Source: Lytechinus pictus
Lineage: Eukaryota
Direction: 5' to 3'
DNA: 64,000 nucleotides
NCBI RefSeq assembly: GCF_037042905.1
Contig: NC_087250.1
Location: forward strand, 8,434,001 to 8,498,000
Shown: in pieces, positions 25,780 through 28,900 of the stretch
Position numbering within the stretch: position 1 is the first letter of the stretch
Layout: each line of letters opens with the position of its first letter
The notes under the pieces: generated by a model
Databases searched by the model: none
What the model was told of the DNA's origin: nothing
Seen by the model: only the letters and a program-made list of their open reading frames with translations
Made by a program: the position numbers and the translations under genes

Positions 25780-25915
25780 ATGCCTCTGCCAGAAACAGAT
25801 GAATATTCAGATGTCCAGGTTTACTTCACAGCCAATGAATGGGCAGATATCAGCGATTACGAAAGGATTTGTATCCAGAATGTCAAGGAAAACTATGAGA
25901 TGATGACACAAGTTG
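25780..25915 (+). CDS. KRAB-A-like exon, [45 protein letters not shown](G)
   Basis: The pattern DVxVYFTxxEWxxxxxxE...NVKxNY...G aligns by eye with the PRDM9/SSX KRAB. It ends in a phase-1 intron within the Gly codon, as KRAB-A exons do. Acceptor tcctag at 25721-25726, ATG in tcaccATG context. Confidence 0.9.
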
Positions 25916-28900
25916 GTAGGTGCAGTAATTTGTCAGAAGAACTTTTGTCCATTCATTGAAAAAAAAAAGATTTAGCCATTGAAATTTGGTTCCTTAGATT
26001 AATTCAAGACCTGGGCCGGCATTCAATTTGATTCTTAGGCCAGAATATTAAGTATTTTACTCAGCATTTTTGTTTGAGTAAAATACTTATCCATCTTTGG
26101 TATTCAACTGTATTTTTGGCTAAGTATTTTTCTTAAATCTAAGTCAGCCGCCTACCAGACTTAAGACTGGCTTATGTGCAATATTAGTTATGATACAATA
26201 CATGCAGTCATACATACTGCACACAGATGGATACAATCATTGCACGTTTCTTGGCTCAAATTTCATGACGTCACAATGGTTTGCTTAAATTTGACTTGAT
26301 AAACTAAAATACTTGGATGTAATCTGAACATGCTTTTTAAATATTTCTACAAGCCCAGTAAAATTTTAAGTAGGCCTACAAGACCTCAAAAATCAATACT
26401 TCCAATTGAATAGAGTCCCTGGAACTTATCATTCCTAGACCTATTTTGAGAGGGAGATTGGCTAGATCAGAAGCATTATAACCAGGTGGATGTTTCATAA
26501 AGCTGTTCGTAAGTTAAGAGTGACTTTAAGGACAACTGGTGATCCTTACGTGCTAAATAATCACCAACGAACAATGGTGAATAGCATTTACCACAAGAAA
26601 TAATTACTAGTCGTTCTTAAAGGTCAAGTCTAACCCATAAAATGTTGATTTGAATAAATGAAGAAAAATCAAACTAGCATCATGCTGAAGATCTCATCAA
26701 AATCGGATGTAAAATAAGAAAGTTATAACATTTTAGAATTTCGCTTACTTTTCACAAAACAGTTAGATGCACGTAACTCAGTGACATGCAAATGAGATAG
26801 TCTTTAATGTCCCTGACTATTTCTTTTGTTTTTTATTGTCGGAATTTTAATACAATATGTCATTTTTTACTGATTTGACAATAAGGGCCAACTTGACTGA
26901 ACCATGTAGTATCAAACAATGCTAATTCCACATGTTCAGGGAGGAATTATATCACTTGGAAATAAGGAGAACATTAGAATTTTTCATACTGTAATAAAAT
27001 ACAAAAGAAAAATTGAGTGGATGACATCAATCTCCTCATTTGCATGCCTACCAGGATATGCATATATATATGACTGTTTTGTGAAATTAAGCGAAAATTT
27101 AAAATATCATGAATTTCTTATTTTACATCTGATTTCGATGAAATTTTCATTGGTATGCTCATTGGATTATATTTTTATTTATTGCAACGTTTCATTGGGG
27201 TGGACTTGTCCTTTAAACTCAATCTTTAAAACTTAGGAACAGCTCTATGACAGAACACCCTGCTTGTACATTTTTGCTGTCATTTCATGGGAATTTTGTT
27301 TTAATAATGTCAATTAATTTGTTTTTTGTCAATATTGGTGTTTCATACCAACATTGAAAAAGCAATTTTTGTTTTTAATACACAGGGGTACAGGTCAACC
27401 CACCAATGTTCATGCAGCGTCAGCAGGGAATTCATAAAGAGATAATTGAGGAAAGTGAGGGGACAGAGACAAGAGGTTTGTGAATTTCCCATGTTTCTAC
27501 ATGTAACCTAGCAATATAAAATCAACAGAATGTTACACTGAAATTGTGATTTGCTCTATTGACAGATAATGTTTTGGGGGCAATTTATACAAAGGTAAAT
27601 TGTTTTTTGTGTCATTTGAAAAAAGGAAAAGAATATCACCTTCTTTGTGAAAGTTACGCACTAAATTTTGAGGTGATTTTCAATTGTCTCATCTTTCACG
27701 TATAAAGGCCTAATGAGTCGAGTGTTGTATGATGTATCACAAATATTCACAATTGTCCAGAGTCAGAATAACATTTTTGCTGATTGATTGGAATTGAACT
27801 TGGTTCATTGTTTGAACGTGATGATTCCAGAAGATTACAGTATGTAACAAAAAATTGAAGTCGAGTCTGTATGTAAATTACATCAGCAATGGCGGTGGCA
27901 TTGATTAATATACAAGAACCTGTGTATCATTTATTTTATAGAATAACTGAATTTTCTGGAGAATAATCATTTTTTACAACCATTCATAAGTAATTAGTGA
28001 TGCATTGCTAGCCATGCATCCAGTAAATTTGCTATGCAAAAGTAATTACCGGATGCATGGCTAGCCATGCGTCAGTAATTACTTATGCATGGTAATCATT
28101 CTATATCTATATATATTTGCGGGTAAATATTAATCCATCTCTTTTCTTCTCTAGGGTCTTCTGACGTTCATAATCAACAGGGAAATACATGTCATACAGA
28201 GAAGAATGAGTTACATAAAGAGAATTTGAATACAGTAAGTACGAGTATGCAAGAAAGTATTTGCATGTCTCTGAGCTCACTAGGACACATTAGTACATGC
28301 TTCGCTGCCAATGATTACAAGATCATACATTTTTTAATCCAGGTGGGTGTTTCATAAAGCTGTTCGTAAATTAAGAGCAACTTTAAGAATGACTGGGGAT
28401 CCTTTCTTGTGGTAAATGGTATATTGAATTGGCGATGGTTCACCAGTCGTTCTTAAAGTCACTCTTAAGAACAGCTTCATGAAACGATGTCCTGGGCCAA
28501 GTTCTGGCATATGCTTAAATAAAAATCCCACATTTCTATGATAATTTTTTTTCTTATTTTTCTTCTTAGCATGTGTTTTTGTTGCATGATCTGACATGTC
28601 AAAATGTTTGGTTTTATTTTTGGAATGTATGGTATCTTGATTTTTTTTTACCGGTAATTCTTTGTTTTTATTATATTTAGTTCACTATAAAAGTAGAGGC
28701 CGAGTATGATGATGATGGCAATCTGCTAGGTGAGGCTAATCACGATGCAGAAGGGAAAATTACTGATCTGGAATGGAAGAACTATGATCAAATTACCCAG
28801 ACACAAACCAATCCAATATTATCAGGTGATCAGAGGACCAAGTCAGGTGATCTCATCATTCTGTCATGTGATCAGAAGGCAGAAGAAGCTTCAGGAGGCA

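Follow-up and report, generated by a model that had tools for sequence, protein, structure and literature searches.

How the meiotic KRAB domain of PRDM9 became a TRIM28-recruiting silencer is a question with a single natural intermediate to go by, that of the coelacanth. The same question is raised by a gene of the sea urchin Lytechinus pictus that lies in a 64,000-nucleotide stretch of contig NC_087250.1 (positions 8,434,001 to 8,498,000; this whole stretch is called the window). Its KRAB sequence had been described, in an earlier note on the same letters, as mixing ancestral and modern features. The gene is an expressed PRDM9 paralog of a predicted 970 amino acids in which no SSXRD or SET was found, and its box is an ancestral KRAB (aKRAB) of the PRDM9 class and not a mosaic. 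The exons are as follows.

25727–25915, plus strand: exon 1 (first coding), with a short 5' untranslated region, the ATG at 25780, the whole aKRAB-A box (residues 8–45) and a phase-1 donor.
27386–27475, plus strand: exon 2, with the aKRAB-B box including PxxFM and a Q/E-rich stretch in place of the basic stretch of PRDM9.
28155–28234, plus strand: exon 3, linker; its 28234>28681 joint has 75 reads in RNA run X21.
28681–28939, plus strand: exon 4, linker, a homologue of the stretch between KRAB and SSXRD in urchin PRDM9.
28940–36940, plus strand: predicted intron 4, about 8 kb, holding a 238-bp tandem repeat at 32092–33972.
36941–39288, plus strand: exon 5, with a single post-SET finger of PRDM9 type, then a spacer and an array of 25 finger units.

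The five exons have compatible phases and give 970 residues with no internal stop; an in-frame TAA stands five codons upstream of the ATG at 25780, and the alignment of RNA contigs begins at 25726, preceded by unplaced letters. Four raw-read RNA runs were aligned to positions 21500–31900, a range beyond which the exon 4–5 joint lies, and the evidence of expression comes from runs X21 and X24. The joint between exons 1 and 2, a 1470-nt GT..AG intron with its donor after 25915 and its acceptor before 27386, was present in all four runs, with 49 plus-strand reads in the stranded run X21. The same junctions are found in the closest named protein, the L. pictus model P0001 (93% identity over exon 1). 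The peptide quoted in the earlier note is therefore real and spliced as written there. Joints at both ends of exon 2 were seen in reads, the one toward exon 3 being 27476>28157 with other letters between. Reads of this gene and of an inverted twin within the window (see below) are not separable at 95% likeness, and about 43% of the X21 reads show the twin's letter at 25907 and 27426. Exon 4 would join exon 5 directly, as suggested by phase and by the named Lytechinus models P0002, P0006, P0047 and P0014, in which the linker runs directly into the post-SET finger.

The L. pictus PRDM9 (P0004), when compared with the window by tblastn, matched exon 1 (67% identity), exon 2, exon 4 (residues 115–201; 51% identity, E 5e-18) and the beginning of exon 5 (residues 431–486; 71% identity, E 3e-21). 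Its SSXRD, zinc knuckle and SET segment gave no match in the window better than E 3. A hidden Markov model of this segment, which scores 98–373 bits on SET-bearing proteins, reached −4.9 bits at best in the six frames of the window, and 12 relatives gave zero tblastn matches to intron 4 at E ≤ 0.05. Neither of the domains by which a full-length PRDM9 is recognised, SSXRD and PR/SET, was thus found in this gene. By these matches, which cover KRAB, linker and post-SET finger alike, it descends from urchin PRDM9.

In P0021 (L. pictus) and P0051 (L. variegatus), one family member retained in both species, a PHD finger (Pfam PHD, 38.7 bits) occupies the place of SSXRD and SET, just before the single finger, and is likely a histone-mark reader replacing the writer. 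The L. pictus models P0016 and P0048 have a THAP domain annotated upstream of the family KRAB, and P0010 joins this KRAB to a V-ATPase C fragment; these may be real fusions or merged models.

An ancestral box is defined by a one-residue gap at position A32 (Lorenz 2022, PMC8835667). The box fits the 38-position aKRAB profile ungapped. The PRDM9-like spacing and the downstream PxxFM that had been noticed earlier are borne out, with a W-to-N distance of 17, as in all ancestral boxes and against 18 in 16 of 16 modern boxes retrieved, and with the letters PPMFM in exon 2 after the A box. The MLE of modern KRAB at A32–34 is absent, the window box having gap-K-E, and none of the modern B-box elements (KPD, LE, PW) occurs in exon 2. 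Summed profile bits were 67.5 for PRDM9, 42.2 for coelacanth and 39.5 for SSX, compared with 78.5 (PRDM9) and 41.3 (coelacanth) for the box of P0004; these figures add up the match emissions as published, at 37 of the 38 positions and with transitions omitted, and are rough sums from profiles of different sharpness and not hmmsearch scores.

Pfam KRAB matched exon 1 at 20.7 bits against a cut-off of 20.4, with 33 residues aligned to 34 positions of the profile, and 41 proteins matched at E ≤ 0.001 among 1.84 billion searched, so the likeness to KRAB is beyond chance. The same model was reported in 8 of 12 SET-less boxes scanned (16.1–20.9 bits) and in none of five urchin-type PRDM9 boxes (P0004, P0011, P0013, P0007, P0009), and it gave 29–38 bits on four vertebrate-type PRDM9 fragments, exceeding the window box. 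On a home-made modern profile the window box scored 32.4 bits, P0004 17.5, vertebrate-type PRDM9 37–44, coelacanth 42 and modern boxes 75–95 (leave-one-out); the profile was made from 14 modern boxes retrieved with the window query, which inflates the shift toward modern.

The mixture of ancestral and modern traits was accordingly not upheld, as the box is PRDM9-class by profile and gap and less modern-like than vertebrate-type PRDM9 boxes. The residues that had been called modern are mostly inherited, V8 and K-E-N-Y from invertebrate PRDM9, while D7 belongs to the pan-KRAB consensus. V8 is present in 9 of 13 SET-bearing invertebrate PRDM9 boxes and in 5 of 5 S. purpuratus rows, and at A7 each of the three published ancestral profiles ranks D first. 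K-E-N-Y is found in 11 and E34 in 12 of the 13 boxes, and K-E-N-Y recurs in all five S. purpuratus rows of Lorenz Table S1. DI can replace DV without loss (Lorenz 2022, PMC8835667), and DV was therefore rejected as diagnostic. As modern traits DV and ENY are ordinary, and the part worth testing is the fixed remodelling of the box.

The structure model of the box (predicted local distance difference test score 85) has the expected helices, at 10–13, 18–23 and 26–44, but fold searches did not single out KRAB. The ZNF93 KRAB (7z36_D) appeared at rank 18 (Z 3.3, root-mean-square deviation 2.4 over 33 residues) among unrelated helices; VIA-align found nothing at Z ≥ 5 and Foldseek no match in the PDB at E ≤ 0.001, a 45-residue helical model being non-discriminating in both. 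Exon 1 compared with the sequences of solved structures returned ferritin alone, at E of at least 1. Pfam matches to RHS and THB lay under the cut-off and were rejected.

The remodelling itself is seen when SET-less and SET-bearing boxes are compared. Relative to urchin PRDM9, the window box has A to D at A7, A to V at A10, K to R at A25 and R to C at A27. D7, R25 and C27 are each present in 15 of 15 SET-less boxes, whereas among 13 SET-bearing boxes they occur in 1, 0 and 0. Seven of the 15 are partial or fused models grouped by likeness, some of the 15 boxes are identical, and six of the 13 are near-identical Lytechinus PRDM9s. R27 is invariant in all 13 SET-bearing boxes. SET-less boxes further have V10 (12/15), I or F at 20 (15/15) and V31 (10/15), and 17 of the 35 KRAB-A positions, the new states D7, R25 and C27 included, are invariant across the 15 boxes from two species. 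All three new states occur in the seven proteins with a linker-to-single-finger join, namely the window gene, P0002, P0006, P0047, P0014, P0021 and P0051. Models P0053 and P0054 are omitted from the residue table (box pattern not matched), and P0019, a doubtful model, stands in neither group. The latter, from the shark Pristiophorus japonicus, combines an ancestral box having C at A27 with an SSXRD-like stretch and fingers, with no match to SET; it is possibly another loss of R27, or a poor model.

In a tree of the boxes the SET-less ones form one clade (ultrafast bootstrap 100, stem 0.31 substitutions/site) and the Lytechinus PRDM9s are near-identical; the fixed changes hence amount to one event. 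Deep nodes run against species relations and S. purpuratus is absent, so that the tree gives neither a date nor the direction of change at A7, A10, A20 and A31.

The box is distinguishable from ordinary invertebrate PRDM9 KRABs at the fixed positions, some of which are KAP1-contact positions. The emission of R27 is +3.5 bits in the PRDM9 profile, −1.9 in that of coelacanth and −0.9 in that of SSX. This residue is lost in every SET-less offshoot looked at (SSX, coelacanth, modern, urchin), which makes it a candidate PRDM9-specific contact. Taken together, the 13 substitutions relative to P0004 add 15.9 bits on the modern profile, with a null of −4.6 ± 5.7 (p 0.0008) that ignores fold constraint. 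The clearest shifts away from PRDM9 and toward modern are at A25, A27 and A29, and these are small on the modern side. Outside the box, the family has gained SUMO consensus sites (ψ-K-x-E) in the linker: 13 of 14 SET-less N-termini carry such sites, compared with 1 of 12 from SET-bearing proteins; the window gene has one such SUMO consensus, at residues 105–108 in the linker of exon 4. Sites of this kind are SUMO acceptors linked to repression.

Of the 25 finger units in the exon 5 array, 23 are intact C2H2 fingers; the first cysteine is missing from the third unit and the second histidine from the last one. The array (37184–39253) repeats by six-finger blocks of 504 bp and not by single fingers, with a mean DNA identity of 0.935 at lag 6 (about 0.75 at other lags) and up to 100% at lags 6 and 12. 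Diversity at finger positions −1, 3 and 6 is 0.29 in the window array and 0.18–0.22 in three SET-less relatives, compared with 0.42–0.56 in four urchin PRDM9 arrays; the concentration of diversity at DNA-contact residues that is typical of PRDM9 is not seen in the window array. Past the stop codon, at 39290–40480 on the plus strand, lie about 11 more finger units that are broken and no longer in frame, and that are interrupted by an unrelated insert at about 39610–39890. The array was therefore once longer.

We read the gene, with a probability of roughly one half, as encoding a DNA-targeting adaptor without methyltransferase, in which KRAB would have changed partner and the output would be repressive and probably SUMO-assisted. 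A PRDM9 copy without SSXRD and SET would still bind DNA through its zinc-finger array. Loss of R27 would mean loss of the meiotic partner, and the KRAB in its remodelled form would bring in a protein different from the meiotic partners of PRDM9. Repression would then follow a route that is most likely SUMO-assisted and not the canonical MLE/TRIM28 one. The substitutions fixed in the box have likely given it a new protein partner, and they possibly echo the step behind the vertebrate KRAB silencers.

Several points weigh against the adaptor. The 28939–36941 joint is not covered by aligned reads. The change of R to C is possible by one transition (the codon here is TGT) and may have been fixed once in a founder, so that the 15 of 15 represents one event; several rows, moreover, are partial models or identical boxes. 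The largest modern gains, A15 set aside, are at A7, A10, A20 and A31, which raise the vertebrate PRDM9 profile about equally and may therefore reflect general KRAB fitness. The single SUMO consensus of the window gene is within chance. Finally, purifying selection is weak between the two window copies, which differ by 8 non-synonymous and 7 synonymous codons in 378 bases.

One alternative is that this KRAB is non-repressive. It would then be a relaxed remnant, or else act as a decoy, still binding partners of the CXXC1 type and competing with the full-length PRDM9 while placing no marks on H3K4 and H3K36. The KRAB of PRDM9 gives no repression (Lorenz 2022, PMC8835667) and interacts in two-hybrid assays with CXXC1, among other proteins (PMC5688218), and most of the window box is the same as in PRDM9, at the 67% identity given above. 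Young, near-identical duplicates and the decayed finger tail also point to rapid birth and death. Against this alternative stand the seventeen invariant positions, three of them in new states, the loss of an arginine (R27) that all 13 SET-bearing boxes keep, and the loss of the PRDM9 diversity signature from the arrays. We consider this alternative rather unlikely.

A second alternative, which the earlier note had raised on the strength of other residues, is that the altered aKRAB enlists the TIF1-family protein of the urchin itself and silences its targets, as gapped aKRABs of the coelacanth enlist coelacanth KAP1. Two coelacanth KRABs with the gap bind KAP1 of their own species and not the human protein, and the PRDM9 KRABs of coelacanth and human bind neither (Helleboid 2019, PMC6745500). 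This speaks for such recruitment, as do the non-basic A27 and acidic A34, which agree with the coelacanth profile at two positions named as likely direct contacts (Lorenz 2022, PMC8835667). Of 11 KAP1-contact positions (Stoll 2022, PMC9753469), nine are matched or conservative by eye in the window box and six in P0004; the shift of 15.9 bits toward the modern profile goes the same way, and co-immunoprecipitation of a KRAB-like zinc-finger protein of the eel was 'consistent with a possible interaction' with TRIM33 (PMC11603059). However, the same count gives 9 of 11 for vertebrate-type PRDM9 boxes too, yet neither mouse nor human PRDM9 binds TRIM28 (PMC5688218). The equivalent of ZNF93 Tyr29 is I in the window box and Met33 is absent. 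The nearest human construct tested (L20, V27, gap-KR) was inactive, and hydrophobic residues at A20 and A27 without the MLE insertion gave no repression (Lorenz 2022, PMC8835667). The profile shift, for its part, carries the bias of the 14 retrieved boxes and of a null blind to fold. In flies, which have one TIF1 and zero KRAB zinc-finger proteins (PMC10672805), Bonus is less than 20% similar to TRIM28 in the KRAB-binding region and dCas9-KRAB brought no gain in silencing (PMC13588077).

Recruitment of TIF1 is on balance unlikely. It is equally doubtful that the birth of a KRAB silencer was repeated in urchins, independently of the coelacanth and tetrapod lineage, by shedding SSXRD and SET, losing R27, gaining D7, V10, I20 and V31 and keeping the inherited E34, with TIF1 acting on targets such as transposons. 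As coelacanth aKRABs bind their own KAP1 and not that of human, a GAL4 assay in human cells could yield a false negative.

A true mosaic, or a transitional form toward modern KRAB, is highly improbable: the Pfam matches of the SET-less boxes and a modern-profile score above that of its parent would suit one, but the box scores below vertebrate-type PRDM9, coelacanth and modern boxes on that profile, groups with urchin PRDM9 by its KRAB, its linker and its post-SET finger alike, and has neither MLE nor a modern B-box. Just as improbable is a full PRDM9 with SET exons that lie hidden, have diverged too far or are absent from the assembly, a reading for which an 8-kb intron 4 and an unobserved exon 4–5 joint leave room, since the window contains zero N and no SET or SSXRD signal, the inverted twin has no counterpart of 29376–35683 at all, and the direct linker-to-finger join is annotated in relatives too.

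The twin is a second copy in the window.

2090–6297, minus strand: inverted paralog, with exons at about 6297–6162, 3795–3700, 3029–2950 and 2507–2090, frames kept.

The zinc-finger exon of this copy would fall outside the window, before position 1. Pfam KRAB matches the paralog at 20.9 bits, and the introns of the two copies are 93–97% identical. The paralogs stand head to head in a patchy inverted duplication (about 700–16000 against 17500–36700; 74–94% identical). In the minus-strand copy, 159 bp are duplicated internally in exon 4, and exon 2 carries an in-frame insertion of 6 bases. A tandem repeat with units of 163 and 192 bp ending in a CGC run occurs at 1–703 and 51932–52824 (93.5% identical); in the minus-strand paralog, the last intron is interrupted by one copy of it. 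At 41294–41999 on the minus strand are broken frames with a YADD motif, which we take to resemble a reverse transcriptase of the long interspersed nuclear element type.

The domain, then, is an already known PRDM9-subgroup aKRAB, and the gene resembles the coelacanth class of aKRAB zinc-finger genes. Echinoid PRDM9/Meisetz (L. pictus P0004, L. variegatus P0011 and S. purpuratus W4YDS2, the last in Lorenz Table S1) shares with it box length, gap, V8, K33-E34-N35-Y36, PxxFM, linker and post-SET finger. The window gene differs from these in lacking SSXRD, zinc knuckle and SET, in the replaced basic stretch after the B-box and in an array less diverse at DNA-contact positions. The coelacanth genes (lcha KZNF) likewise combine a gapped aKRAB with a C2H2 array and are without SSXRD and SET, and they share D7, a non-basic A27 and gap-K-E. 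Unlike them, the window gene is multi-exon and of separate descent, from urchin PRDM9; its box scores 42 bits on the coelacanth profile, not above urchin PRDM9 (41), with I for Y at A28, a B-box without KPD and putative TIF1 binding. With modern KRAB-A (ZNF10, ZNF93) the window box has D7-V8, F12, E16, W17, V31, E34 and N35 in common, and its model suggests a short helix plus a long helix as well, whereas the M32 insertion and the modern B-box are absent, K stands for L33 and I for Y28. The aKRAB of SSX also belongs to a SET-less PRDM9 offshoot that lost R27, but SSX retains SSXRD, is without zinc fingers and is confined to mammals (Lorenz 2022, PMC8835667).

In the accessible literature, aKRAB zinc-finger genes without SSXRD and SET are so far described from the coelacanth only (Lorenz 2022, PMC8835667), and PRDM9 has been called unique in invertebrate genomes (Liu 2014, PMC3971581). 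Variants in a cnidarian preprint (10.64898/2026.09.07.749791) are, in the part available, truncated at the 5' or 3' end only. Transposon binding has been predicted in bulk for sea-urchin zinc fingers, with PRDM9 unmentioned in the accessible text (Wells 2023, PMC10547256). A literature search, outside which most subscription journals fell, found no description of SET-less aKRAB zinc-finger genes in sea urchins.

Beside the coelacanth intermediate, the urchin family is thus a second case, young and experimentally tractable, in which the parent PRDM9 persists near-unchanged alongside. It provides a short list of substitutions, at A7, A25 and A27 together with A10, A20 and A31, that can be swapped singly.

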